Shown here: positions 50 to 61,524 of the stretch, piece after piece | How positions within the stretch are numbered: the first letter of the stretch is position 1 | Layout of the letters: every line of letters begins with the position of its first letter | Sequence record: MT682711.1 | Source of the DNA: Escherichia phage vB_EcoM_FB | Reading direction: 5' to 3' (one strand) | Length of the DNA stretch: 64,000 bases | The notes under the pieces: generated by a model | Databases searched by the model: none | What the model was told of the DNA's origin: nothing | The model's input: the letters and a program-made list of their open reading frames with translations, nothing else | Position numbers and translations under genes: made by a program

Positions 50-2261
50 TTAAGCCGCTTCCACGGCTTTCATGAATTTAACAATTTGAGCTACAGAAGC
101 CTCGGTAATGGATGTTCCACGACGATACATGTAGTCCGAAACTAAATGGTAATCAGATTCAAACTGTACAGTCATTTTATCATTGTTGCTTGAAGCATTA
201 TCAGTCAACTTAAAAAAAGTATTGTTACAAATTTTCTTGATAACGGAAAGCTTATCATCAGTGATATAACCATGGAAATTCATATAACGGAATATATCAT
301 AGAAATTACTCAGACGAGTATATGCTTCAGTTACCGGCTTATCACTGAAATACTTGGTCATGAAATTAAGCTGAGGGAACTTAGCAATGATTTCAAGGTA
401 ATACCGAGCTCGAGTATTGCTACCAAGGTAGTCATCAACATCTACCGCGTCTAAGGCTTCAGCATAAGCTTCTAATGTAGCTTCCATCAAGCATTCGCAT
501 TGGCCTAACTTTTTAATCTTTTTGGCAATCTGAGGGCGAATGATATGGAATTCGGTAGCACCAATCAAATTAGCCATACGACACATGGTAGTGGTATTGA
601 TGTCAAAGATACCATAAGCTTCATCCATTCCCATAATATCAGAACGACTGCCAAACAGAACATAACCTGTAATTTCTTCTGCTTCGGCAGCAGTCAAATA
701 CATGGTCTCTTGTTGCCAGCGCCCGTCTTTAATGAACCAACGATAAGCACTCGGTGTTTTAGGACGCGGTTCTGATGAACGGACAGTAACCGGAATCCAT
801 GGCTTAACAATTTTATTCAGTTCAGAGACTTTATAAAAATGAATTGTGTCACCTTTAAAAAGTTCTTTAACCTTTTCAAGTTGTTGCATTTGCAACATTG
901 AATTTGGGTCGACAAAAATAAGGTCAGTTCCGTATTTAGGAATATTGTTCTCTTTAACAATTTTCTTAGCCGAAGCACTGTTGTCCATTGCCAGAGCCCA
1001 AAGACCTCGAACTAATGGCACACGACCTTTTTCATCATCATAAACAACATGGATTTCTTTCTTATTAATGCCTAATAAATTACTAAGTCCTGCTACCGAA
1101 GAAGTATTACCACTTGACTTAATTCGTTTCAAACGTGGGTCTGAAACGACTTCGTAAACCACACCTAAATTAATAAGGTCGTTTTGAAGTGTATAACACT
1201 GGTATAATTTCTCATATGTCAATTTTTCTGTAGTAAACAGGCTAGTTCCACCTTTTTTGGTAAGATAGTCACGAGCACTGTAACCAAGGTTAGAAAGGTC
1301 ACGATAAACATGGCGTGGATTATCAGATTCAACCCATTCCTATGTATCGTTTTTAAAGACCACTGCATCCAGTGCTTCGATACGGGTTGCAATATTTTCC
1401 ATCGTACGTTTATCAAGAGACAACACTTCACGAGAAGGAGCAATATCCAGTGAACCCATAGGGAACTTAATATAAACTACATCATGGCGAGTACGCATCC
1501 ACGTGCCTTTATTATAGGCGGAATCCAATGGATAAACAATACCACCATAAACTGCATAAAGTCCTGAACGTTCGAAGCTGCCATAATTTGTAGTGGTTAC
1601 AGGATGGTAATCGTCAAATTCAGGGAAATAATCAACTTCAACACCGTCTACATCACCAAGACCAATGAAAGGCCGCATGATATAACGAACTTCAGTTTCA
1701 AACTTACGGAAATCTTCTTCATCAACAGGAACCGTGATTTCGATACCTGTTTTATCACCTGGTTTCATAGGTTCTACGAAAGTAGGTTTAATCTGTGGTC
1801 CATCACCATCCATATATGCTACATAACCGCGAACTTCACCGTTATGCCATGAGGTAATATTAAACGTTTCGGTATAACTGAACGGAGATTTTGAACCAAG
1901 GCCAAAGCCACCGATGAAATCGTTAGAAGCCGTTTTGGATGACGCGAAATAAGAGTTGTACAAACCTGTTTCGTTTTCATCACCACGAATTTGGAAATCA
2001 CTCATACCCGGACCGAAGTCACGACATACAAAGCGAGGGTCCAGTTTACCAGGGACCTGTACTTTCCAACGTTCTTTATTACCATTCAGAATATGAGCAT
2101 CAATCATGTTAGTAATCAGTTCACGTACTACAGCAACGTACTTTATTACTATAAAGGTCTGATGACAAAATTTTAAAGACCTTAGGCGATGCCTGGATAG
2201 TAAAGCCTGTGGACTTAGCGCCATTACCAATGATTTGTTCTTTTTCGGTTTCAATAATCAT
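50..2261 (-). pseudogene. rIIA: rIIA-like membrane-associated GHKL ATPase, disrupted: +1 frame change near codon ~40 and an in-frame TAG at 1340-1342
   Basis: ATG at 2261 with upstream GAGAAAAAT gives [14 protein letters not shown]..., then the frame shifts into ORF 1340..2254 carrying the GHKL N-box ([11 protein letters not shown]) and G1 box (RDFGPGMS); amber TAG at 1340-1342 separates it from the in-frame ORF 50..1222; first gene of the T4 map by position. Confidence 0.7.
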
Positions 2262-33023: not shown

Positions 33024-33218
33024 TTAATCAAAGTATTCATAAACGAACCAGGCAGGATTCCTGTTCGACATGATTCTATCATACTCTGACTTAAAAGCAT
33101 TTCGGAGATAATCTTCAGTAACAAGATGTTCGTCTCCAGAGAAGTTATTAACTAAAACATACCGCTTTAGTTCAGGAACGGCCAACAAATGCTGGCCTGT
33201 TATAAAATTAGAAGCCAT
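33024..33218 (-). CDS. hypothetical protein
   Basis: 64 aa ORF. Confidence 0.45.
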   Translation of the reverse strand: MASNFITGQHLLAVPELKRYVLVNNFSGDEHLVTEDYLRNAFKSEYDRIMSNRNPAWFVYEYFD

Positions 33219-33225
33219 ATAAATA
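33218..33225 (+). promoter_or_regulatory. late promoter TATAAATA on plus strand
   Basis: tataaata at 33218-33225, 37 nt upstream of the HNH gene ATG. Confidence 0.55.
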
Positions 33226-33261: not shown

Positions 33262-33978
33262 ATGAATTATAAATCAATATACGAAAAGCTTATTCAACGA
33301 GCAGTTAATAGAAATTTAACTACCTATAAAGAACGTCATCACATTATACCACAATGTATGGGTGGAACGGATGACGCTTTAAACTTGGTAGACTTAACAC
33401 CTGAAGAACATTACTTGGCTCATCAGTTGTTAGTTAAAATCCATCCAGATAATGTATCACTAGTCTATGCGGCAAGAATGATGACAATTAGCTCACCAAA
33501 TGCTGATAGGTCTAAAAATAAATTATTTGGATGGCTTCGTCGTAAGAATTCAGAAGTCCAAAAGGATAAAGAATTCTCGGAAGAAACCAGAAAGAAAATG
33601 TCGATTTCTGCTTTAAAAAAGCCTAGAGTTACCTGTCCACACTGTGGTAAAACCGGTTTGGTAGGCAATATGAACAGATGGCATTTTGATAATTGTCCTA
33701 AAGGCCCTAATAAAGTGGTTCATACTATACCAAAAGAACAAAAAGATAAAATATCAAACACTTTTAAGAATAAAGTATTTGAATTGGTTAATTGCCAGTT
33801 TTGTGGTATAGAAGGTAAGAAGAGCGTTATAGTAACCCATCAATATTTTTGCAAATTAAACCCTAACCGTAAAAAGAAAGAGGACCCTAAAATAAAGTGT
33901 CCTCATTGCGATAAAGTAGGAATACCTGCCAATATGAAACGTTGGCATTTTGATAATTGCAAATTAAAGCCTCAATAA
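33262..33978 (+). mobile_element. free-standing HNH homing endonuclease gene with C-terminal zinc-ribbon repeats
   Basis: ERHHIIPQCMGG...NLV.L...EHYLAH HNH motif; three repeats of CPHC.K.G...NM.RWHFDNC; only plus-strand gene in the replication cluster, inserted between 46 and the rpbA-position gene. Confidence 0.7.
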
Positions 33979-38067: not shown

Positions 38068-38334
38068 TTAATCCTTTGGAGTCAATTCAATAGTGAAGTA
38101 GAAATTAGCGTTCTCAACATGATAACGATAATCTACGTTATTGTCAGGAGAAGTGAATTCAATATTCCTGACGTTAAGTGGGTCAATATCAATAGGAAGG
38201 CCTTTAACATCCCGTAATATCAATTTAATAAAATAAGGGAGTGCTTCGAAGTCTTCCATTCCATCTAAAAGTGGAGTGATATTAATCTGATGTTCCATAT
38301 AAAAAATCCAGTTCACCAACTTTAGGTTCGGCAC
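38068..38334 (-). CDS. hypothetical protein
   Basis: 88 aa ORF. Confidence 0.5.
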
Positions 38335-38839
38335 TCTTATCAGACCCTGGTGCTTTAGTTAAAGAGGTTTCATACTGAGTCATTTTGTCGTAGATATCTT
38401 GGATAAAGGTTTCATCTGCAATACCTACCATGTCGTCATCATTACTGTCATAGACATTATGGACGAAGTAGCTATATTTCTTTGCCATTTCTTTACGTTC
38501 TTTTTTGATACGCTGAACGAAGGCATTAAAACAAGCCATAGTGATATATGCATGTGGGTTGTCGTATTTTGTTTCGTCGAAATTGTGAAGACCTTTAATC
38601 GAAGCTTCGATTCCATCAGCTATCATTTCCTGCCGCCAAGATTGGGTATATCCTGAGAAGTTGAAACGCTTGCTGAGGCCTTCTGCTATAAGCATAATAG
38701 CCAATCCTATAGTATCATTTTGTCTAATGATTTTATTAGGGTCGGTGTTAGCATATAATTCCTGCTTCCAACTTGTAATAGCTTTAAGAAGCTCCTTGTT
38801 ATTTACATAATTATTTTTTGTTAACTTCACCTGATTCAT
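38282..38839 (-). CDS. 55: late-transcription sigma factor
   Basis: NYVNNKELL...[28 protein letters not shown]...[22 protein letters not shown] matches T4 gp55 as recalled; start set to ATG at 38839. Confidence 0.9.
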
Positions 38840-39506
38840 AAGCCCTCTTAAACCTATCAACTAGTGGTCTAAAATTATTTATCGTATATGGATAACCTAG
38901 TTCACAGCATTTGCGCCAGAATTTAGAATAACTAGGGCGTCCTTCCTTAATCCAAAGTTCATGGAACTCATCATATAATACATATGTTGGATTTTTAGCA
39001 AACTTGGAATAATTCTCTATAGAGTAATATTCTTTGTTCTTTTTACTTTTGGCCTCTCTAACTTCAGGATTAGCATTATACTCTTTATGGATTCGACGCA
39101 TCATTTCTCGATGCTCTTCATTTTCCCAAGACTTTTTAATAGAGTTGGAAACCCGCTCTTTATATTCAGGGTCCTGCCAGCGTTCGGTAACTTCTTTAGA
39201 CTGTTCTTCAAGTCTTTCCGGTGTCGGAGGAGCATAACCACCTATACCACCAGGTTTCATATTGACGCAGTTAGTTATTTCGGACATGGCATTTTCTACC
39301 AAAAGCTCTTCAAATTCAAAAGCAAGCTCACTTGTCTCAAAATAACATAAGGCCTCTATATTAAAAGAGCATTTCCCTGAGGCCTTAGCATCTTCTACGA
39401 ATTTGCCACTACCGACATACCCGTCATCTATAAATCCGGTGTGTTTACCGAAATAGTAATAAGTATCATTTTCGGATTTTATAGTGGTCATATAACAATA
39501 GTGCAT
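38811..39506 (-). mobile_element. GIY-YIG homing endonuclease gene (Seg-like)
   Basis: 231 aa; N-terminal YYYFGKH...GYVGSG GIY-YIG motif; basic C-terminal tail; stop overlaps gp55 start. Confidence 0.6.
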
Positions 39507-53469: not shown

Positions 53470-53706
53470 TCACCAGTATTTGCTAATGGTAGAAATTAAT
53501 TCTTGGACCTGGGCTGTATTCAGTTTACATCCACAACCCTTTAATGTGTCTTTAAGGAGCCACGGTTCCTTGAGCTCGTCCTTTTCTAGACGAATTCTGT
53601 ATCCTCGATAATCGGCGAAGATACTTCGGTCGTCGAATATCTTAATCTCAAGGATACGACCGTTGATTTCATATTCTAACGAAACCGTAGTACTTGTAAG
53701 TTTCAT
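53470..53706 (-). CDS. hypothetical protein
   Basis: 78 aa ORF with own promoter. Confidence 0.5.
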   Translation of the reverse strand: MKLTSTTVSLEYEINGRILEIKIFDDRSIFADYRGYRIRLEKDELKEPWLLKDTLKGCGCKLNTAQVQELISTISKYW

Positions 53707-53725
53707 TCTGTTCTCCTCATTAGTT

Positions 53726-53763
53726 GATAGGTCTATAGTATCATGTTCCTAGAGGATGTAAAC
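53726..53763 (-). promoter_or_regulatory. early promoter (GTTTAC, TACTAT)
   Basis: gtaaac 53758-53763; atagta 53735-53740. Confidence 0.55.
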
Positions 53764-53771
53764 ACCTAAAC

Positions 53772-53801
53772 GAAAAAAGGTCCCACCGAAGTGAGACCTT
53801 T
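53772..53801 (-). terminator. intrinsic terminator (UUCG-type hairpin plus U tract)
   Basis: aaggtcccac-cgaa-gtgagacctt with A6 on plus flank. Confidence 0.6.
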
Positions 53802-53803
53802 GA

Positions 53804-54190
53804 TTATTCTAACGTTAGCAAATACTTGGTCTGGTAAAAGACACCAGTGATATCGTCCAAAGTCGACTGGATGGCCTTAGGAAGATTTTTGTAGATTTTA
53901 TCAGATGCTTTAATAAGTTCATCAAGAAAATCTATAGGGTCTTTAGGCAGTTCTGAAGCAGACGGCAGTGATGCTTTATATTCTTTGCCACTGAATCCAA
54001 GATATTGCTCACTAAATTGGTCCAGTGGTCCTTGAACTTCTACGTAATAGAAGTCATACGCTTTGTGTCTTGCATAGCTTTTGGTTTCTAAATGGGCTGA
54101 CTTAAAATAGGCTAAAGAAACCAACAGCCAGCCAATATAAGAATCTACTTCAGTCCCTCGACTAAGTACGAAATCATTGAATTTCATCAT
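53804..54190 (-). CDS. hypothetical protein
   Basis: 128 aa ORF. Confidence 0.55.
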   Translation of the reverse strand: MMKFNDFVLSRGTEVDSYIGWLLVSLAYFKSAHLETKSYARHKAYDFYYVEVQGPLDQFSEQYLGFSGKEYKASLPSASELPKDPIDFLDELIKASDKIYKNLPKAIQSTLDDITGVFYQTKYLLTLE

Positions 54191-54467
54191 CTACCTTCAT
54201 TAGTTTAACGTATCGTTCTCCGACCTCCCGACCTTCAATCGAGCAAGACACTATTGTATTGCAATTTGAAAGTTTCCAAGAAGCAGTTAAATAAGCCCAG
54301 TAGTCTTTAGAGGCCTTTACGCTAGGTTTACTCATTTGCGCATAAACTGGCATCGCACTACTAGCAAAGGCATCCATCAATTTAGGATCGGATTTGTTTG
54401 CTAGTGAAACTGTTGGGCTTAAACATCCGATCATAAGGATACAAGCCACTGTACGGAAAATACCCAT
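54174..54467 (-). CDS. secreted or periplasmic protein
   Basis: 97 aa with N-terminal signal peptide. Confidence 0.5.
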   Translation of the reverse strand: MGIFRTVACILMIGCLSPTVSLANKSDPKLMDAFASSAMPVYAQMSKPSVKASKDYWAYLTASWKLSNCNTIVSCSIEGREVGERYVKLMKVDDEIQ

Positions 54468-54556
54468 ACAAAAGTCCTTTGTTGTTTTATACTATTTGCC
54501 TTTCGGCCTTAACCGATAGCGATTACCAAAAGCTAAAGCTCTACGGTTAGTATTAT

Positions 54557-54564
54557 TATTTATA
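54557..54564 (-). promoter_or_regulatory. late promoter-like TATAAATA
   Basis: rc of tatttata at 54557-54564; about 90 nt from the next start, so weak. Confidence 0.3.
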
Positions 54565-54838
54565 GCTTTTTAAGCTTACGACAATAAGAATAGAACACGT
54601 CGTTAAAATTATATTCAACCCAATTCCTCTGTATAGGCGAGGTAATGGAAAGCATATAATGCGCTTTAATTAAATCCATCCCATTTTTATTAGGACATTC
54701 TTTATTATTAGCATTATACGTCGCTGCTACAACCTCTATCTCTCTTTTGTAAGCCACATCATCCATGATAGGCGAAAGAACAATATAAGAAATAGCCACA
54801 GCGAACGCTAGAATTAAAATCTTTGAATTTAGGTCCAT
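54560..54838 (-). CDS. membrane protein
   Basis: 92 aa with N-terminal hydrophobic segment. Confidence 0.5.
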   Translation of the reverse strand: MDLNSKILILAFAVAISYIVLSPIMDDVAYKREIEVVAATYNANNKECPNKNGMDLIKAHYMLSITSPIQRNWVEYNFNDVFYSYCRKLKKL

Positions 54839-54845
54839 AATACCC

Positions 54846-55418
54846 TCAACTCGTTATTTCTATCCAGTGCTTCCTGCACAATGACACGTAAGAATCGTTG
54901 CCACCTATAGAAACTTGGTCACCGTCCTTAATTGCGATACCATTTTGGATACGAGCTGTCATAGTAGCCTTACGTCCACAATGGCACACACCTTTGTACT
55001 CAACGAGTTTATCTGCTGTAGCCAATAATTCAGCAGAGCCAGGAAACAGTTTACCCTGAAAATCAGTTCTTAGACCGTAACACATGACCGGTATATTATA
55101 ATTATCTACTATCTTTGCCAATTGTTTTATTTGCAAAGGTTCTAAGAACTGTGCTTCATCCACAAACACGCAGTGGATATCTTTTTGAGATTCAGCCCAA
55201 CGATAGAACTCGTATAGGTCCATATCCGGAGTCACTGCATTAGCCTCTTGACTAATCCCTATACGAGACGAAATGGTATGGCTTGATTCTCTATTGTCTA
55301 TCGCAGGCTTTAAAAGGAGTACGCTCATACCTCGTTCTTTGTAGTTATGAGCGGCCGTTAGCAATGAAGCAGTCTTCCCGGAATTCATTGCCGCATAGTG
55401 AAAATAAAGTTGAGCCAT
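54846..55418 (-). CDS. tk: thymidine kinase
   Basis: 190 aa; P-loop AMNSGKT, Walker B FVDEAQF, zinc ribbon CHCG...C; T4 position. Confidence 0.85.
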   Translation of the reverse strand: MAQLYFHYAAMNSGKTASLLTAAHNYKERGMSVLLLKPAIDNRESSHTISSRIGISQEANAVTPDMDLYEFYRWAESQKDIHCVFVDEAQFLEPLQIKQLAKIVDNYNIPVMCYGLRTDFQGKLFPGSAELLATADKLVEYKGVCHCGRKATMTARIQNGIAIKDGDQVSIGGNDSYVSLCRKHWIEITS

Positions 55419-55427
55419 ATTACCTTC

Positions 55428-55634
55428 TTAAAGACTATTTACATAAGCAATTAATTCGTTTTCTTTCTCATCAAACCGACTGGCGAATTCTTCCTGGTGT
55501 TCGGCATCTATAGGGCCATATTCATCATAAAAAGAATTTGCTTCTGCATGCTCATCCAAAAGCTCATGGATAAGCTCAAATAATTTATCTTTCTGTTCTT
55601 TACTCAGACTCATAACCATTGCACCTTTAAGCAA
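55428..55634 (-). CDS. hypothetical acidic protein
   Basis: 68 aa ORF. Confidence 0.45.
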   Translation of the reverse strand: MLKGAMVMSLSKEQKDKLFELIHELLDEHAEANSFYDEYGPIDAEHQEEFASRFDEKENELIAYVNSL

Positions 55635-55822
55635 TATTCTTCTACATGCTGTTTACGTTTATTTTTATCTATAAAAGTATATTCAACATATTCGCCGATA
55701 TACCATTTATCGGTGTTGTGTTGACTTTTTATAGGGCATTTAGTTACTCGGGTTTCGGTCCAGCGTCGAATAATTTCCGCTTTGTTTTTAGGGTCAAACG
55801 GATGCGGGTAATGGGCTTTCAT
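55610..55822 (-). CDS. hypothetical protein
   Basis: 70 aa ORF. Confidence 0.45.
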   Translation of the reverse strand: MKAHYPHPFDPKNKAEIIRRWTETRVTKCPIKSQHNTDKWYIGEYVEYTFIDKNKRKQHVEEYCLKVQWL

Positions 55823-56261
55823 AATCTACCACCACTAAATTAATATCAGGAGTAAACAAATTAATCAATTGATAAACCTTGTCCCAATCACCACCGGCAA
55901 TACCACAACCGATGCGAGGAATATAAATTCTGGGTTTAAACAAAAGACCCTTTGCGGTACGGTTTAATTCTATCATACAGTTTACTAAAGCACCATAATC
56001 AAGATTAGGGCCTGGTTCGTATTGGGTGTATAAATTATAGCAAATTTGGCCCTTATTACCTGTGGCTTGAGTAAACGTGCCAAGTTTTTCCAAATTGCCT
56101 AAATAAGTGGTTTTATCAATAGCAAGAATAGGTGGATATGCCTTAGCCAATTGACCTGCTACACCTGAACCCATAGTATGAAAACAGTTACACCCATGAG
56201 CAACGTTATTACCCTGAAGAAACAGGGCGACGATATCGCCCTTAATATAATCAATAATCAT
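55794..56261 (-). CDS. possible macro-domain (ADP-ribose binding/hydrolase) protein
   Basis: 155 aa; Gly-rich GCNCFHTMGSGVAGQL and IGCGIAGGDW segments; assignment tentative. Confidence 0.35.
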   Translation of the reverse strand: MIIDYIKGDIVALFLQGNNVAHGCNCFHTMGSGVAGQLAKAYPPILAIDKTTYLGNLEKLGTFTQATGNKGQICYNLYTQYEPGPNLDYGALVNCMIELNRTAKGLLFKPRIYIPRIGCGIAGGDWDKVYQLINLFTPDINLVVVDYESPLPASV

Positions 56262-56614
56262 TTAGAGTTTAGCCCTCGGTTGTAAGAGTCAACGAGTCTG
56301 TCTACCATAGACGCGCATATTTCTTTGTACTTTTTATCAGACGGAACACATTCAGTAACGTTTAGACGTTGCTCGTATCTTTTAGAAAGGGTTTTCTCTT
56401 TCATTCGACGATGCTCGACGTCATTCTGTCCATCTTTAAAAGCAGCCGTTATTTTTGAACTGAATTCAATAACACATTCAGTATTACTTGGATGACAATA
56501 ATCTTTTGCTGTACGGGTAGCATACTCGACAATTGAATTATTGGTATCATCAACCTGTGACGCTAATACTCCCGGAGCAATCAACATAAGCGCTATAGTC
56601 ATCTGTTTAATCAT
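56258..56614 (-). CDS. secreted protein
   Basis: 118 aa with signal peptide. Confidence 0.5.
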   Translation of the reverse strand: MIKQMTIALMLIAPGVLASQVDDTNNSIVEYATRTAKDYCHPSNTECVIEFSSKITAAFKDGQNDVEHRRMKEKTLSKRYEQRLNVTECVPSDKKYKEICASMVDRLVDSYNRGLNSK

Positions 56615-57178
56615 TTAATATACCGCCTCAAACATCTTTTTAGATTTTAGGTAATTGGCCTTTTCTAGAACTTCCGAAGCATATTTACTACCTGCTTTGA
56701 AATTCCAGCCCGCATTATAAGAAGCAATCGCTTTTCTCAGGTCACCTTTGTGAACATTAATCCAATAAGACAGCTCAATGTAGGCCCAAGAGGCACTGTA
56801 CTGTCGGTTTTGGACCATACGAATTATTTCTTTATCTGACATCTTCCAACCTACCTGTTTAACACGACTTCTTAACGTAGGCAAGTAATTTTGGAACATG
56901 CCATAAGCATGGTGCTTATCTTTATTTAAACCTTGATTAATCCCAGCAGATGATTCCTGCCATAATAATCCAGCCATTATATATCCTAATCCTTTTTGAT
57001 TAGGGGTTTCTTTGAACTTTCCCGACTTTTGGTATTGTTCACCGAAAGCATACGCATAATGTAAATTATCTAGCTGGGTTTCTGTAAATACGGGTTCTGC
57101 TGCACTTACAGAAAACGAACCGCACATAATAGCCGCTATTAAAGAATATTTAAGTTTTTTTAGAAAAATCATAATCAA
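56615..57178 (-). CDS. secreted lytic transglycosylase-like protein
   Basis: 187 aa; signal peptide; LWQESS and AYGMFQ...YNAG SLT-type motifs. Confidence 0.5.
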   Translation of the reverse strand: MIMIFLKKLKYSLIAAIMCGSFSVSAAEPVFTETQLDNLHYAYAFGEQYQKSGKFKETPNQKGLGYIMAGLLWQESSAGINQGLNKDKHHAYGMFQNYLPTLRSRVKQVGWKMSDKEIIRMVQNRQYSASWAYIELSYWINVHKGDLRKAIASYNAGWNFKAGSKYASEVLEKANYLKSKKMFEAVY

Positions 57179-57884
57179 TAAGTCCTCGGTAATCTACATT
57201 AGGGAAGCCATTCTTAATTGCGATTTTACTAAATCTTCCACACTTTGGTTTATTATTATCTACCCATAATTTATATAATTGTGAATACATTGGTTCACGC
57301 CATATAGGAGCCTTTCGCAAAGAGGCCTTTTTCCTTTCTATAGTTTCCTTAGAATTTTGTATGGCTTTAAATTTTTGTCTATTTTCAGGATTTTCAAAAT
57401 ACTTAACCCGTTTTTCAGACATTTTAGCTTTTACTTTTGGCGAATTTAAAATTTCTTTGAGCCGTTCTTTAGAGCCTTCCTTTTCAAAATATTTTATTAA
57501 AGCCTTTGAATGGGCCGCCCTATTTTCATTTTTAGAGAAGAATAAAATTTTATTAATAGATTGCAGTTTTGAAAATGATTCTTTAGCCAACTTATAATTT
57601 TCAGCATCTACAAAATAAGACCTTTGCTTTGAATTTGAAGTAGAGCTCATATTTAGCCAAGCAAAATTCAACCCGTAGTGGTTTGGATTAGCTTTGGCTA
57701 AATACATATGGGCTAAATAGTGTTCGTCAGCATAAAGCTCGACTAAATTGTCTTGGGTGTCAGGACCACCAACACAACTCGGTATTATATGGTGCTTTTC
57801 TGTATAGGCATCATTAGGTGTATCCCTAGATAAGGCAGCATTTATTATTTTATAGTAGTCATATGGATATTTTATAGTTTCCAT
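57150..57884 (-). mobile_element. free-standing HNH homing endonuclease gene
   Basis: 244 aa; EKHHIIPSCVGG...NLV.L...EHYLAH closely matches the plus-strand HNH gene at 33262; basic C-terminal region. Confidence 0.65.
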
Positions 57885-57891
57885 ACTATCC

Positions 57892-58350
57892 TCACAAGTA
57901 AATAACTTTCGTGCTGGTTTTACCTTCTAAACGTTTAGAGTTAACAAATGCCATACGACATTTAAGGGAATATCCTTTATCAGGATGTTTACGGTCTACT
58001 GTCATACCTAGCCATAAGGTTTTATCGGTAATTTCGAGACGCAATGGACGATACACTTTACCAGGGACAATTTCGGATTCTACATCAGGTAGAGGTTCCT
58101 GGATTAAAAATTCATGAATTTCTTTAACATGGTTATGGAGTTGCTTGAATAAAGCAAAAACGTATTTTTCGTCGATTTCACGTTGGATAGCACGGTCCAA
58201 CAAGTGATTAGAGTACTTAATAAAGAAGGCTGGGACTCCGCTCTTGATGGCGGCTTTTTTGATGGACGTATTCAGTTCACGGAATTCGGTTTCGAACTGA
58301 CGACGTAATTTATTGCGGCGGATGAATACTTCTGAATTAATTTCTGACAT
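57892..58350 (-). CDS. regB: RegB site-specific endoribonuclease
   Basis: 152 aa; EVFIRRNKLRR...HLLDRAIQREIDE...LEITD resembles T4 RegB as recalled. Confidence 0.85.
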   Translation of the reverse strand: MSEINSEVFIRRNKLRRQFETEFRELNTSIKKAAIKSGVPAFFIKYSNHLLDRAIQREIDEKYVFALFKQLHNHVKEIHEFLIQEPLPDVESEIVPGKVYRPLRLEITDKTLWLGMTVDRKHPDKGYSLKCRMAFVNSKRLEGKTSTKVIYL

Positions 58351-58365
58351 TTTGTAATCTCCTGT

Positions 58366-58407
58366 AGTTGATAGGTCTATAGTACCACGTCTACAGGAGA
58401 TGTAAAC
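58366..58407 (-). promoter_or_regulatory. early promoter (GTTTAC, TACTAT) with perfect 10-nt anti-SD in spacer
   Basis: gtaaac 58402-58407; ctacaggaga (58391-58400) is the reverse complement of tctcctgtag (58358-58367). Confidence 0.6.
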
Positions 58408-58411
58408 TGCT

Positions 58412-58663
58412 TTATTCTTGGAATGGGGTAAGTTTTCCAGCAGCTGAACAAATTTCTACCAGTACAGGGTAAAACTCTTTCACTTGTTCAAGGCGTTGGG
58501 CTGCATACTGTACTTCACCTTCTTCGAGACAAGCCATTTGGTCGTCAAGCAAGTATTTGTGGTAGCCAGTACAGGCTTCACCGATAATACGCTGGAAATC
58601 TTGTAAACTTTCAATTTTCATCAGTATTTTTCCTCGGGTTGGAAAACGGAACGACACGCCCAC
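58412..58663 (-). CDS. hypothetical protein
   Basis: 83 aa ORF. Confidence 0.5.
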   Translation of the reverse strand: MGVSFRFPTRGKILMKIESLQDFQRIIGEACTGYHKYLLDDQMACLEEGEVQYAAQRLEQVKEFYPVLVEICSAAGKLTPFQE

Positions 58664-58899
58664 ATGCTTGCTTCTTTCAGACGGTCAATTGCATTACGAA
58701 TCTGGGTGATGCGTTCATGAGCCTGGTCTAGTTCTTGTTCATAAACCTCTTCGGTATCTAAGTTCATATAATGAGTAACATGTTCTTCTTCCAGAGCTTT
58801 AAACATTAACCCAAGACGAACTTCAGCATCTTTGATAGCTTTTACTTTACCGATTTTATCGTCGGTATGCGGCTTATAACCCTTGATATCTTCAATCAT
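58621..58899 (-). CDS. hypothetical protein
   Basis: 92 aa ORF. Confidence 0.5.
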   Translation of the reverse strand: MIEDIKGYKPHTDDKIGKVKAIKDAEVRLGLMFKALEEEHVTHYMNLDTEEVYEQELDQAHERITQIRNAIDRLKEASMWACRSVFQPEEKY

Positions 58900-59114
58900 T
58901 TCACTTCCTCGCCAGTTGCGATATCATATTCTACCAAACGAAGGCCTTCAGTCCAACCTTGCACGGAGATATAGGTAGTCGGGTAAATCATTTCTTTACC
59001 ATTCCACCGACCGCCATCCCAGACTTCCAGAAAGTCTTGTTCACCTGGTCCATTAAGCCATTCAACAAATCTTTTCAGAGCTTCTTCAGAACCTTCAATT
59101 GTCAATTTAGACAT
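58896..59114 (-). CDS. hypothetical protein
   Basis: 72 aa ORF. Confidence 0.5.
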   Translation of the reverse strand: MSKLTIEGSEEALKRFVEWLNGPGEQDFLEVWDGGRWNGKEMIYPTTYISVQGWTEGLRLVEYDIATGEEVK

Positions 59115-59403
59115 ATTTTTTCCAATCAGAAATCATATGAATCTCTTGGTCATAAGTCAAGAGACTACGAGCAATAATACCCTTACAAGGCCCTGAGATG
59201 AACTCGAGAGTGAAGTAAGGAACCTGTTTCATTAATCGGATACTAGGAGCATGACATCTAAAACGAGAGCCCTTAAAGGGCCCTGTCATGAATACATATT
59301 CCAATGGGTAGAAATAAGCATATTCGAAATTTGCAGTAAGGTCCTCTCTTCGAACCTTACGTGAGAAATAACAGAACTCAAAAAGTTCTTCATCAGTCAT
59401 CAT
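59107..59403 (-). CDS. hypothetical protein
   Basis: Track ORF trimmed to ATG at 59403, ATGA overlap with upstream stop. Confidence 0.45.
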   Translation of the reverse strand: MMTDEELFEFCYFSRKVRREDLTANFEYAYFYPLEYVFMTGPFKGSRFRCHAPSIRLMKQVPYFTLEFISGPCKGIIARSLLTYDQEIHMISDWKKYV

Positions 59404-59927
59404 TGCATTCCTATCACAAAGAACAGAGGCAAAGGCTTGTCGCCTTGGCACATAAATTTATTAATCATTACCTGGTAAGCTTCATAGAACTTATCCATCG
59501 CTGGAAGGCGCATTGGCTCTTCGATAATAATCAATAATCGAGTAACAGATAGTCCACGATACTTATGGAAATTGTCTTCATCAAGGAAACTGCGCACAGT
59601 ATCATAGACAACAAAACCAGGACCTTCGACTTGGAGATGTGGGTGTGCCTTAGAAACCTGTTTTATTACATTACAAATTTCTCGCGAGCGATGCGAAGAA
59701 CTCGACATAACAATCACATCATTACCCTTGGAAACCCAATCAGCGGCGAACTGGGCAAGGGCACTTGTTTTACCTGTTTGGCGTCCGCCATCAAGTCGAA
59801 GAGTACCAAACTCTTGCATTCTTGAAGCAGGTTCATACCATGTGTATTGGTCTGAGTCTAAACGTTCAATGGCGCGTTCAGCGAAGGCGTGCATTAAGGT
59901 TAGATAAATGGGAGTTAAAAATTTCAT
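59400..59927 (-). CDS. P-loop NTPase-like protein
   Basis: 175 aa; GGRQTGKTS Walker A-like, LLIIIEEP Walker B-like. Confidence 0.5.
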   Translation of the reverse strand: MKFLTPIYLTLMHAFAERAIERLDSDQYTWYEPASRMQEFGTLRLDGGRQTGKTSALAQFAADWVSKGNDVIVMSSSSHRSREICNVIKQVSKAHPHLQVEGPGFVVYDTVRSFLDEDNFHKYRGLSVTRLLIIIEEPMRLPAMDKFYEAYQVMINKFMCQGDKPLPLFFVIGMQ

Positions 59928-60087
59928 AGTAGTCTCTTAGTGGTGGGGCCATTCCTTGGCACATAATTCGTCCATGTATCCGTATGTAAACCCTTTACCG
60001 CACTTGGGCTCGACCTTATTACAGGTAGGGAAAGGTCCATCACTCAGAGGACGCGACGTTCATGAGGAGAGGGCCGGCTTGCCTTTA

Positions 60088-60387
60088 TTAGAAAGAACCA
60101 GAACCTCTAATTGTGTTCTGGCGACCTTTATTTTCTAATTCGGAGTGGTCGATTTCATATGCTTGTGCTACGCCAAAGGCCTTTTTAACTTTAGCTAAAG
60201 AACCTTTAGATGTAACAATATTAAAAGTATTACCTTTGGTAAAATCAACAAAATCGACTTGTACGCCCTGTTTACCGAGGCTTGCTACAATAGCATCAAC
60301 ATATTCTTGGTCTAAATTGCCTTGAACTCCAATTTGAAATGCTTTAGGAGCTTTGGCTTCTGTGATAAATTCTTGATAAGTTTTCAT
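60088..60387 (-). CDS. internal protein (IPII-like) with capsid targeting sequence
   Basis: 99 aa; N-terminal MKTYQEFITE|A resembles the T4 internal-protein capsid targeting sequence as recalled. Confidence 0.65.
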   Translation of the reverse strand: MKTYQEFITEAKAPKAFQIGVQGNLDQEYVDAIVASLGKQGVQVDFVDFTKGNTFNIVTSKGSLAKVKKAFGVAQAYEIDHSELENKGRQNTIRGSGSF

Positions 60388-60430
60388 TGTTATTCCTTAA
60401 GTTGATAGAAGTATTCTATCACGGATTTAA

Positions 60431-60847
60431 TTAAGCGTAAATAGCCTTGCCATAATGTTTGTACCAGGTAGGACGCTGTGCAATTTTTTCATCCAAACGG
60501 GTCTGAGATATAGCAATAGAAGCTTCGTGTGGAGTATAGTCACCACGGAATTCCTGAGGAATGTCACTAATGTCCTGGACAGTAGTATCCTTGATATTAA
60601 AACCACGTTTTAAACATTCGGCTATAAGCTCAATTTGTCGCTTACGTAAAAATTCAAGCTTATCGTAAAAGAATGTAACATGGCCTGTGCCAAGGATAAA
60701 AGTAGGACTGATTTTGAAATCACGGACACGTTTACCATTAGCAACATGCTTACGAACTGCACCGAAAACACGTGGTAATTCACGATATTCAGCCATTAAG
60801 TGTTGGTCAGCCAATTCAGATACTAAGGTAAGGTTGATACGAGTCAT
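60431..60847 (-). CDS. denV: endonuclease V (pyrimidine dimer DNA glycosylase)
   Basis: 138 aa; [29 protein letters not shown] resembles T4 DenV as recalled. Confidence 0.85.
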
Positions 60848-60865
60848 TTTTAATCTCCTGTAGTT

Positions 60866-60903
60866 GATAGGTCTATAGTATCATGACTACAGGAGATGTA
60901 AAC
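60866..60903 (-). promoter_or_regulatory. early promoter (GTTTAC, TACTAT) with perfect 10-nt anti-SD in spacer
   Basis: gtaaac 60898-60903; atagta 60875-60880; ctacaggaga (60887-60896) vs tctcctgtag (60854-60863). Confidence 0.6.
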
Positions 60904-60927
60904 AACTTTTATCAAGTATAGGCTTTA

Positions 60928-61524
60928 TTAATTACCACGGGCTGCATTAGCAACGGCGTAAGCGTACTGAATATTAGCGTCTTTAAACGTACCTTTAGAG
61001 GTATCTATCTCTGCCTTAAAGCCGCCTTTAACCATAACATCAGCAAATTCTTTACGGAAAGTCATTGCATCAAGACCTTTCCATGCGGATTTATGCTTGG
61101 CAAATTCAAGACCGGCGAAGTTAACTGCTTTAGCCAATTTATTATCAATAGTCCATTTACCTGCTTTAGGTACAAACACCGGGCCTTTCTGTTTAGAGAA
61201 CAGTTTTAAATTCCAGCGACGAAGGTCACCGTCAGCTTTAACAAAAGCTGCGTCCAAGTTACTAGCAACAACATCTTGGATATGGGCAAATTTAAGTCCA
61301 TCAGCTTCAATATTTAGGTCGTTACGCCAGCGAAGTCCTTCCCAGGCGAAAGCTTTAAAGTCGGAAGCTTTTGTAGCCAAGTACCGTTCAATAGGAGCTG
61401 TTTTAGCGTCAAAACCGTTTCCTGGGTTGTCAACGCCGTTTCCTTTGTAAGTCCACTCATCTTTATTAATGCCTTGGACCTTTCCTACAGAAGCTTCGGC
61501 GATAAATTCTTTATACGTTTTCAT
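60928..61524 (-). CDS. internal protein (IPIII-like) with capsid targeting sequence
   Basis: 198 aa; MKTYKEFIAE|A N-terminus. Confidence 0.65.
   Translation of the reverse strand: MKTYKEFIAEASVGKVQGINKDEWTYKGNGVDNPGNGFDAKTAPIERYLATKASDFKAFAWEGLRWRNDLNIEADGLKFAHIQDVVASNLDAAFVKADGDLRRWNLKLFSKQKGPVFVPKAGKWTIDNKLAKAVNFAGLEFAKHKSAWKGLDAMTFRKEFADVMVKGGFKAEIDTSKGTFKDANIQYAYAVANAARGN

Follow-up and report, generated by a model that had tools for sequence, protein, structure and literature searches.

The DNA analysed here, a window of 64,000 nucleotides from Escherichia phage vB_EcoM_FB, comes from a T4-like E. coli myovirus of the Dhakavirus type. The 4-kb stretch around the gene of interest is 96.9% identical to phage vB_EcoM_IME540, and 92–97% identical to the Dhakaviruses QL01, WG01, JS10, IME08 and Bp7. 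This gene, referred to below as mob57, lies between regB, which encodes a site-specific endoribonuclease, and vs.1, which encodes an SLT-like, secreted protein (Table 1). It runs in the same direction as both neighbors and occupies an intergenic position, inside neither an intron nor an intein. A preliminary description of this DNA had placed an HNH endonuclease next to regB, and this reading is borne out: the 244-residue open reading frame is intact, the quoted motif TEKHHIIPSCVGGPDTQDNLVELYADEHYLAH is present, and the neighbor matches the Pfam family REGB_T4 with an E of 6.1e-69. The RegB protein of the window is 100% identical to that of QL01. A 79-kb metagenome contig in ENA encodes a protein identical to that of mob57, and near-identical proteins already carry the label "homing endonuclease" in GenBank.

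Table 1. Features at the regB/vs.1 junction and related features elsewhere in the window (positions are those of the window)
Feature	Positions	Strand	Remarks
mob57, MobD-family HNH homing endonuclease ORF, 244 aa	57150..57884	(-)	intact; ATG 57884, TAA 57150-57152
N-terminal HNH nuclease module, aa 1-92	57609..57884	(-)	motif residues H31 H32, N46, H55, H59
Helical K/E-rich middle, aa 94-188	57321..57605	(-)	AF2 helices; aligns with T4 MobD
C-terminal three-helix domain, aa 195-243	57156..57302	(-)	pattern W..Y..LY.LW....PK...F..IA..GFP..Y
GAGGA, Shine-Dalgarno-like for mob57	57889..57893	(-)	overlaps regB stop TGA 57892-57894; read from sequence
regB, site-specific endoribonuclease	57892..58350	(-)	upstream neighbor; Pfam REGB_T4
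vs.1, SLT-like, secreted	56615..57172	(-)	downstream neighbor; phrog_600 E 5.1e-64; weak Pfam SLT match
GAGGA, Shine-Dalgarno-like for vs.1	57183..57187	(-)	in mob57 codons (..YRGLIDY..), 10 nt before vs.1 ATG; read from sequence
Cassette-borne vs.1 5' end, start codon and signal peptide MIFLKKLKYSLIAAIMCGSFSVSAAEPVFTET	57077..57172	(-)	no match to HEG-less QL01
Whole inserted/replaced cassette relative to HEG-less Dhakaviruses	57077..57901		about 825 bp for about 100 bp; three-way alignment
mob33, HNH homing endonuclease, 238 aa	33262..33978	(+)	between gene 45.2 and gene 46; phrog_655 E 2.6e-66
Exact late-promoter consensus TATAAATA near mob33	33218..33225	(+)	ends 36 nt upstream of mob33 ATG
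Seg-like (GIY-YIG family) homing endonuclease ORF	38811..39506	(-)	upstream of gene 55; phrog_314 "homing endonuclease" E 6.5e-20

As read from the sequence, only 7 nt separate the regB stop codon from the mob57 ATG. RNA hairpins that hide the ribosome-binding site occur for mobE, segB and I-TevI; such a hairpin was considered for the ribosome-binding site of mob57 or vs.1 and rejected, as the folding energies are no better than those of shuffled sequences (z -0.25 and +1.74). A promoter belonging to mob57 itself was likewise rejected, since the T4 late promoter TATAAATA is absent upstream of the gene and the sigma-70-like matches found there do not exceed the expectation from shuffling. The gene looks like a promoter-less cassette that is read from the regB transcript, an arrangement described for several T4 mob genes, mobD included (PMC2988022).

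A MobD-like protein and its domains

The mob57 protein matches the PHROG family phrog_655, annotated "homing endonuclease" (E 2.9e-36), and is about 35–37% identical to T4 MobD (37% over 219 aa, E 5e-35), whose tblastn match spans residues 7–236. Five full-length relatives were combined into a family profile, to which 4772 proteins match at E <= 1e-3. The same profile matches solved HNH domains, namely those of a group II intron maturase (E 2.9e-4) and of McrA (E 6.3e-4), with which the HNH motif residues of mob57 align; these residues are invariant or nearly so in alignments of 12 and 42 sequences. The mob57 protein does not reach the gathering score of the Pfam HNH family PF01844 (16.3 vs 21.4 bits, E 0.011). 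Since 28 of the 42 homologues match PF01844 at E <= 0.01 and the family profile finds solved HNH domains, the miss reflects the sensitivity of the model and not an absent motif. A phmmer search of the two HNH proteins of the window against PDB sequences gave marginal matches to the HNH motif alone, and the C-termini were without a match. There is little doubt that mob57 belongs to the T4 Mob (HNH) family of homing endonucleases and to its MobD subfamily. It is a family member of T4 MobD and not its orthologue, because the two genes occupy different loci and are about 35–37% identical. Judged by its sequence, mob57 is probably an active, free-standing homing endonuclease gene (HEG) of the Mob type.

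The AF2 model of the protein is confident, with a mean pLDDT of 93.9 from the 42-sequence alignment. Its HNH core consists of strands at 28–32 and 47–51 followed by a helix at 52–65, a predicted strand-strand-helix metal finger. The middle region is modelled with a pLDDT above 90 as a series of helices (94–117, 119–134, 138–146, 149–164, 166–176 and 179–188), and is presumed to act as an extended, DNA-contacting linker. At the C-terminal end the model places a compact three-helix unit at residues 199–243, which is probably a helix-turn-helix DNA-binding domain. Among the Foldseek matches of the C-terminal 60 residues, eight out of nine are homeodomain or POU-domain entries, with E values of 5–9 that make them suggestive only. 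The whole model has no significant match in the PDB, the best being weak HNH matches to Cas8f-HNH. An elongated, multi-domain model of this kind is ill-suited to global matching by Foldseek.

The overall plan resembles that of enzymes in the I-HmuI and I-TevI style, in which a nuclease is joined by an extended linker with NUMOD motifs to a C-terminal helix-turn-helix. The predicted plan of mob57 is similar, with an elongated linker that connects a small nuclease domain to a small, helical domain for DNA binding; a significant match in sequence or fold to such enzymes was not found. Moreover, these enzymes are intron-encoded while mob57 is free-standing, and NUMOD3 and the I-TevI DNA-binding domain occur in homologues of mob57 and not in mob57 itself: NUMOD3 (PF07460) is present in 25 of the 42 homologues, and was not detected in mob57 at E <= 0.1. 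Taken more broadly, homologues of the HNH module carry NUMOD3, I-TevI DNA-binding, HTH_7 or zinc-ribbon tails. The T4 mob genes have been described as HNH modules fused to distinct C-terminal regions (PMC2988022). Module shuffling in the Mob family is real, but it is old.

Among the T4 enzymes, MobD is the closest in design. It has the same HNH module, a helical middle and a C-terminal W..LY.LW..PK..F...GYP..Y domain, and its gene runs in the same direction as its neighbors and overlaps the start of the downstream gene with its 3' end (by 17 nt in the case of mobD/nrdC.11). What differs is the site, which is nrdC.11/mobD.1 for the T4 gene and regB/vs.1 for mob57. The characterized endonucleases MobE and MobA also combine an HNH module with a distinct C-terminal region, and they too are encoded by free-standing, promoter-less cassettes read from upstream genes. 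Their C-terminal regions are different, however, and they reside at nrdA/nrdB and 60.1/39.

The C-terminal domain of mob57 has a counterpart in a different family of nucleases. An HMM of the three-helix domain, based on mob57 together with 17 further MobD-like proteins, matches the Seg-like protein of the window (Table 1) at E 4.8e-8, the next match in the window being at 0.3; the mob33 protein is not matched. The same Seg-like protein, which is 31% identical to T4 SegB over 152 aa, aligns in BLASTP with residues 135–237 of mob57 (E 1e-5). Seg-type enzymes such as these two are free-standing HEGs of T4-like phages just as mob57 is, yet their catalytic module is unrelated, being of the GIY-YIG family and not HNH. 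By these sequence matches the three-helix domain is common to mob57, T4 MobD and the Seg-like protein, and its presence in two genes of the window is a case of module sharing between nuclease families within one genome.

Relation to the second HNH gene of the window

The window contains a second HNH homing endonuclease gene, mob33, which is antisense to both of its neighbors. The late-promoter consensus TATAAATA lies close upstream of it; this pattern has five matches in the window, which is not above chance overall, and it is the position of this one that suggests a late-promoter function for mob33. The preliminary description regarded mob57 and mob33 as two diverged copies that share a core and differ in their C-terminal regions, and it read them as a sign of repeated homing events with exchange of DNA-binding domains. 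The shared core is confirmed well above chance: BLASTP aligns residues 4–89 of mob57 with residues 1–84 of mob33 at 36/86 identities (42%, E 4e-19), a similarity that covers 86 aa and not just a few residues. When each protein was searched with tblastn over the 64-kb window, the other copy was the sole strong match (E about 2e-16). The similarity is confined to the N-terminal nuclease module, with no significant BLASTP match C-terminal of it, and the C-termini do differ as had been claimed. The mob33 tail combines a NUMOD3-like stretch with three CxxC zinc-ribbon repeats, and matches the endonuclease PHROGs phrog_27406 and phrog_12324; that of mob57 consists of the K/E-rich helical region and the three-helix end.

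It is the descent of the two genes from each other that does not stand. Among 141 family members, mob33 ranks only 80th in similarity to the N-terminal domain of mob57, and mob57 ranks 132nd for mob33, whose closest match in the databases is 81.5% identical. The N-terminus of mob33 is in fact closer to two T4 proteins, MobB (48% over 125 aa) and MobD (49% over 75 aa), than to mob57 (42%). The two genes also occur independently among the Dhakaviruses. Phage 04086 carries both types, IME540 and PSD2002 have the regB copy without the copy at gene 46, the reverse is true of Bp7, KIT01, MX01 and IME281, and neither gene is found in QL01, WG01 and IME08; the mob33 site is empty in IME540, QL01, PSD2002 and IME08. 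A duplication within this lineage followed by a swap of the DNA-binding domain could account for an N-terminal module with 42% identity at E 4e-19. It is nonetheless highly improbable, given the many closer relatives elsewhere, the greater closeness of mob33 to MobB and MobD, the collinearity of mob57 with T4 MobD over its full length, and the independent occurrence of the two genes; the ranks and this independent occurrence led us to reject intragenomic duplication. Since the homology of mob57 to T4 MobD runs from end to end, no domain has been swapped between it and mob33, and this part of the earlier proposal falls away. The notion of repeated homing fares better, because the independent presence of the two genes, at sites that are filled in some genomes and empty in others, fits separate insertion events. 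On the strength of these comparisons, mob57 and mob33 are best seen as members of one large family that were acquired separately, and not as duplicates.

The cassette at regB/vs.1 and the rewritten start of vs.1

Comparison with related phages shows a variable site: the HNH gene is present at the regB junction in some close relatives and missing in others. A 97% orthologue of mob57 is found in 4 of 548 matching phage records (NC-G, IME540, 04086 and PSD2002), in each case between regB and vs.1. The junction is empty in most Dhakaviruses, with 12 nt separating regB from vs.1 in QL01, and in T4, where the spacer is 7 nt. Outside this genus, a nearly full-length homologue with 52–53% identity sits at the same junction in the Klebsiella Jiaodaviruses Merci, KLB8 and Lion_ER11, three out of about 137 records of Klebsiella phages; KpV477 and every other Jiaodavirus record among those listed have an empty site. 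The Klebsiella gene is like mob57 in site and architecture and differs in the phage genus that it inhabits, and the Merci copy has a frameshift in an A8 run. Further MobD-like genes lie at regA/43 in Salmonella phage STML-198, beside gene 31 in the metagenomic contigs P0025 and P0026, at a separate site in Kosakonia phage 305 and, in T4, between nrdC.11 and mobD.1. A scan of IMG/VR for close relatives of mob57 gave partial matches to the middle region alone, none of them at regB/vs.1. A literature search returned no description of a HEG at this junction, and by that search regB/vs.1 is a previously undescribed insertion site for a MobD-like gene.

The limits of the cassette were taken from a three-way alignment of the window, IME540 (filled) and QL01 (empty). 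It begins within the last four codons of regB, where the changes are synonymous (ATC TAT CTT TAA in QL01, ATT TAC TTG TGA in the window), and it ends within vs.1 directly before CAGCTAGATAATTTACATTA, with identity to QL01 returning at CTCGATAATTTACATTATGCG. Because the end of the cassette falls inside vs.1, the first ~30 codons of this gene differ from those of the empty genomes. By its sequence, the replacement leader (MIFLKKLKYSLIAAIMCGSFSVSA/AEPVFTET) keeps the appearance of a Sec signal peptide. The vs.1 ATG (57170–57172) lies within the 3' end of mob57, giving an overlap of 23 nt, and the Shine-Dalgarno-like element of vs.1 is embedded in mob57 codons as well (Table 1). The overlap is annotated in the same way in IME540 and NC-G. 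With the start codon of vs.1 inside the HEG, loss of the HEG by simple deletion would carry a cost, and the embedded start and signal peptide may illustrate how a selfish gene raises the cost of its own deletion. The Klebsiella copies have a like architecture, again with a 23-nt overlap and a rewritten vs.1 start. Where mob57 has the vs.1 GAGGA, the Klebsiella-phage homologue has AAGGGA. In these phages the ATG of the mob gene stands exactly at the position of the vs.1 ATG in the empty genomes, and TTGAGGTAAACATG is identical in both.

A comparison of filled and empty alleles draws attention to one segment of vs.1. The empty alleles of T4, QL01 and KpV477 have in common ..GAGC(C/A)NACTTTCAGTAATG.., which encodes TFSN, so that the protein reads E(P/H)TFSN. 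The filled alleles of the Dhakaviruses and of Klebsiella phage Merci have instead GAACCNGTATTTAC.. (EPVFT), and that of KLB8 has EPLFT. Put in terms of a conserved 13-mer, ACTTTCAGTAATG (TFSN) of the empty type corresponds to GTATTTACAGAAACC in the filled allele. A 26-mer of the empty type is found in 21 T4-like contigs of IMG/VR, together with at least five types of signal peptide; these contigs were picked by the motif itself, and hence show that it is widespread without implying that it is universal. The leader pattern of the filled type has no match in IMG/VR. We consider the conserved 5' segment of vs.1, ..GAGCCNACTTTCAGTAATG.., present in rewritten form in every HEG-carrying allele, as a tentative candidate for the target of mob57, a proposal derived solely from comparing filled with empty alleles and one on which we would put slightly less than even confidence. 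A conserved vs.1 5' end has the merit of being a concrete and testable candidate.

Proposed homing, persistence and alternative readings

With a GC content of 0.318, mob57 is the lowest 735-bp stretch in the 64-kb window (mean 0.390, sd 0.02), and mob33 is the second lowest. Among five Dhakavirus alleles of mob57, dN/dS is 0.04–0.07 with dS up to 0.23, a constraint as strong as that on regB, vs.1 and vs. The gene is therefore compositionally foreign and under strong purifying selection. This selection has a bearing on an unlikely alternative, in which mob57 is a former homing endonuclease that has become immobile and is kept for the embedded ribosome-binding site, start codon and signal peptide of vs.1, or for some other use of the protein. 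The positions of the vs.1 ATG and of GAGGA within the reading frame would suit such a history, as would the rarity of the gene (4/548 records), which could mean poor spread. T4 MobD is itself without demonstrated activity, being listed as "ND / unknown" (PMC2988022). The embedding, however, constrains only the last ~35 nt, and the low dN/dS extends over the whole reading frame, in which all catalytic motif residues are intact.

The sequences that flank the cassette speak to the same question. Upstream of position 57900, the window is 99.8% identical to the HEG-less QL01 over about 3.1 kb, as far as the junction itself; downstream of 57077 the two differ by about 5% over at least 3 kb, and mob57 itself is about 5% divergent from the IME540 allele. 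The change from 99.8% to about 95% means that a recombination breakpoint coincides with the upstream edge of the HEG, which fits HEG-stimulated recombination. The divergence of at least 3 kb on the downstream side may be ordinary mosaicism and not a co-conversion tract. HEG+ and HEG- genomes are intermixed, and together with the near-identity to QL01 upstream this calls for recent recombinational gain or loss at exactly this junction, against an immobile gene. The window and QL01 form a near-isogenic filled/empty pair, which could serve to measure homing and co-conversion by a Mob-type enzyme.

The sharp break in relatedness is also compatible with a role of mob57 mainly in competition between phages, where the enzyme would cut the DNA of co-infecting relatives and exclude their markers, the spread of the gene being a by-product. 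Marker exclusion by the free-standing SegG and others, and competition among intron endonucleases, are documented (references in PMC2988022). This role cannot be separated from homing by sequence, since both use the same steps of cleavage and repair, and no sign of a target was seen outside the local region; we regard it as improbable for the main function, somewhat more so than an immobile gene.

Between the E. coli and the Klebsiella phages, the mob copies are 51.5% identical, and the flanking genes are similarly diverged (regB 59.6%, vs.1 60–65%). A recent transfer across genera was rejected, the divergence of the HEG being about equal to that of its neighbors. A divergence between Dhakavirus and Jiaodavirus that tracks the flanking genes is also what a long vertical residence of an immobile gene would give. 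The element at regB/vs.1 has probably been persistent for long in both genera.

The reading that we prefer is homing. Under this proposal, mob57 would be translated from the early or middle transcript of regB–vs.1. When a HEG-less relative infects the same cell, the helical region and the C-terminal domain would together bind an extended, asymmetric site, and the HNH module would then nick or cut the HEG-less allele, with the predicted break in the empty allele near GAGCCTACTTTCAGTAATGAACAACTCGATAA. Recombinational repair templated by the HEG-carrying genome would transfer the cassette, along with flanking markers, to the recipient, a case of intronless homing, and the carrier itself would be protected by its rewritten vs.1 leader. 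It is worth pointing out that T4 MobA and MobE are nickases (PMC2988022). Free-standing HEGs often make their break hundreds of base pairs away from the place of insertion (PMC2988022), which weighs against the candidate target in the vs.1 leader.

One may go a step further and picture the cassette as a composite, "hostage-taking, self-immunizing" element, which seizes the ribosome-binding site and start of vs.1, supplies in their place a Shine-Dalgarno element, an ATG and a signal peptide that are encoded within and directly behind its 3' end, and thereby rewrites ACTTTCAGTAATG, which on this view is the site that it recognizes or cleaves. We put this forward as a speculative possibility, held with a little less conviction than the candidate target. 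If true, a single 825-bp unit would give mobility, immunity and protection from deletion, and such an element would have stayed at low frequency at one site in two genera (E. coli Dhakavirus and Klebsiella Jiaodavirus) since about the time of their divergence.

In other respects mob57 is ordinary for a T4-like phage and matters little outside phage genomics, the mildly new points being the embedded start and signal peptide of vs.1 and the candidate target. Within that field, the member at regB/vs.1 enlarges the poorly characterized MobD branch of the T4 Mob endonucleases.

Mosaic boundary and early-block neighbours of mob57

When window 53700..61300 is compared with QL01, a Dhakavirus that carries no homing endonuclease gene between regB and vs.1, a sharp mosaic boundary is seen. 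Identity to QL01 is 99.8% across about 3.1 kb upstream of mob57, the MobD-family HNH endonuclease gene at this junction, whereas vs.1, vs, tk.4 and tk, which lie downstream of it, are 5-6% divergent. Further divergence hot spots are found at about 54200-54400 and 55400-55600. Judged from their Pfam matches, which were precomputed and taken from an identical ENA contig, the vs.4-position and tk.4 ORFs are predicted counter-defence-type genes that share one early gene block with mob57.

Features in the window
Feature	Position	Strand	Basis or remark
vs.4-position ORF	about 58621..58899	-	Pfam Acb2_Tad1_hairpin (anti-CBASS sponge family)
tk.4 ORF	about 55794..56261	-	Pfam Macro domain
Exact T4 late-promoter consensus TATAAATA	33218..33225	+	3' edge 36 nt upstream of the HNH gene mob33 (33262..33978)
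Seg-like (GIY-YIG family) free-standing homing endonuclease gene	38811..39506	-	phrog_314 match and T4 SegB similarity

A-run differences in HNH genes at the regB/vs.1 junction

In Escherichia phage PSD2002, a relative carrying the mob57 orthologue, the A-run in the mob/vs.1 overlap (2128..2150, equivalent to window positions of about 57150..57172) has 8 A as against 7. With the extra A, the mob ORF grows to 248 aa and vs.1, which is annotated at 170 aa, loses its start and signal peptide; the frameshift is either genuine or due to a sequencing error in the homopolymer. In the Klebsiella phage Merci (2922..3034), the HNH gene at the same junction is frameshifted in an A8 run near codon 17, and because of this frameshift the annotation begins at an internal Met and lacks the His-His motif. 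The gene is intact, at 243 aa, in KLB8 and Lion_ER11.

Other homing endonuclease genes in the window and in related phages

The late-promoter consensus suggests that mob33, which is antisense to the genes around it, is expressed late and independently of these minus-strand neighbours; across the whole window the octamer is not in excess. The Seg-like gene, the third free-standing homing endonuclease gene in the window, is located immediately upstream of gene 55 (late sigma factor, 38282..38860). Its product matches phrog_314 (E 6.5e-20), is 31% identical to T4 SegB, and has a C-terminal domain homologous to those of mob57 and T4 MobD (HMM E 4.8e-8).

IME540, another relative with the mob57 orthologue, has an additional "intron-like DNA endonuclease" gene in the tk/tk.2 interval (669..1406). 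It is absent from both the window and QL01, and is one more case of presence/absence variation of such genes in the early region. In Kosakonia phage 305 (1214..2677), a MobD-like endonuclease gene is flanked by two ORFs of 94 aa and 175 aa, each annotated as "nucleoside triphosphate pyrophosphohydrolase", which may be one gene split by the endonuclease insertion.
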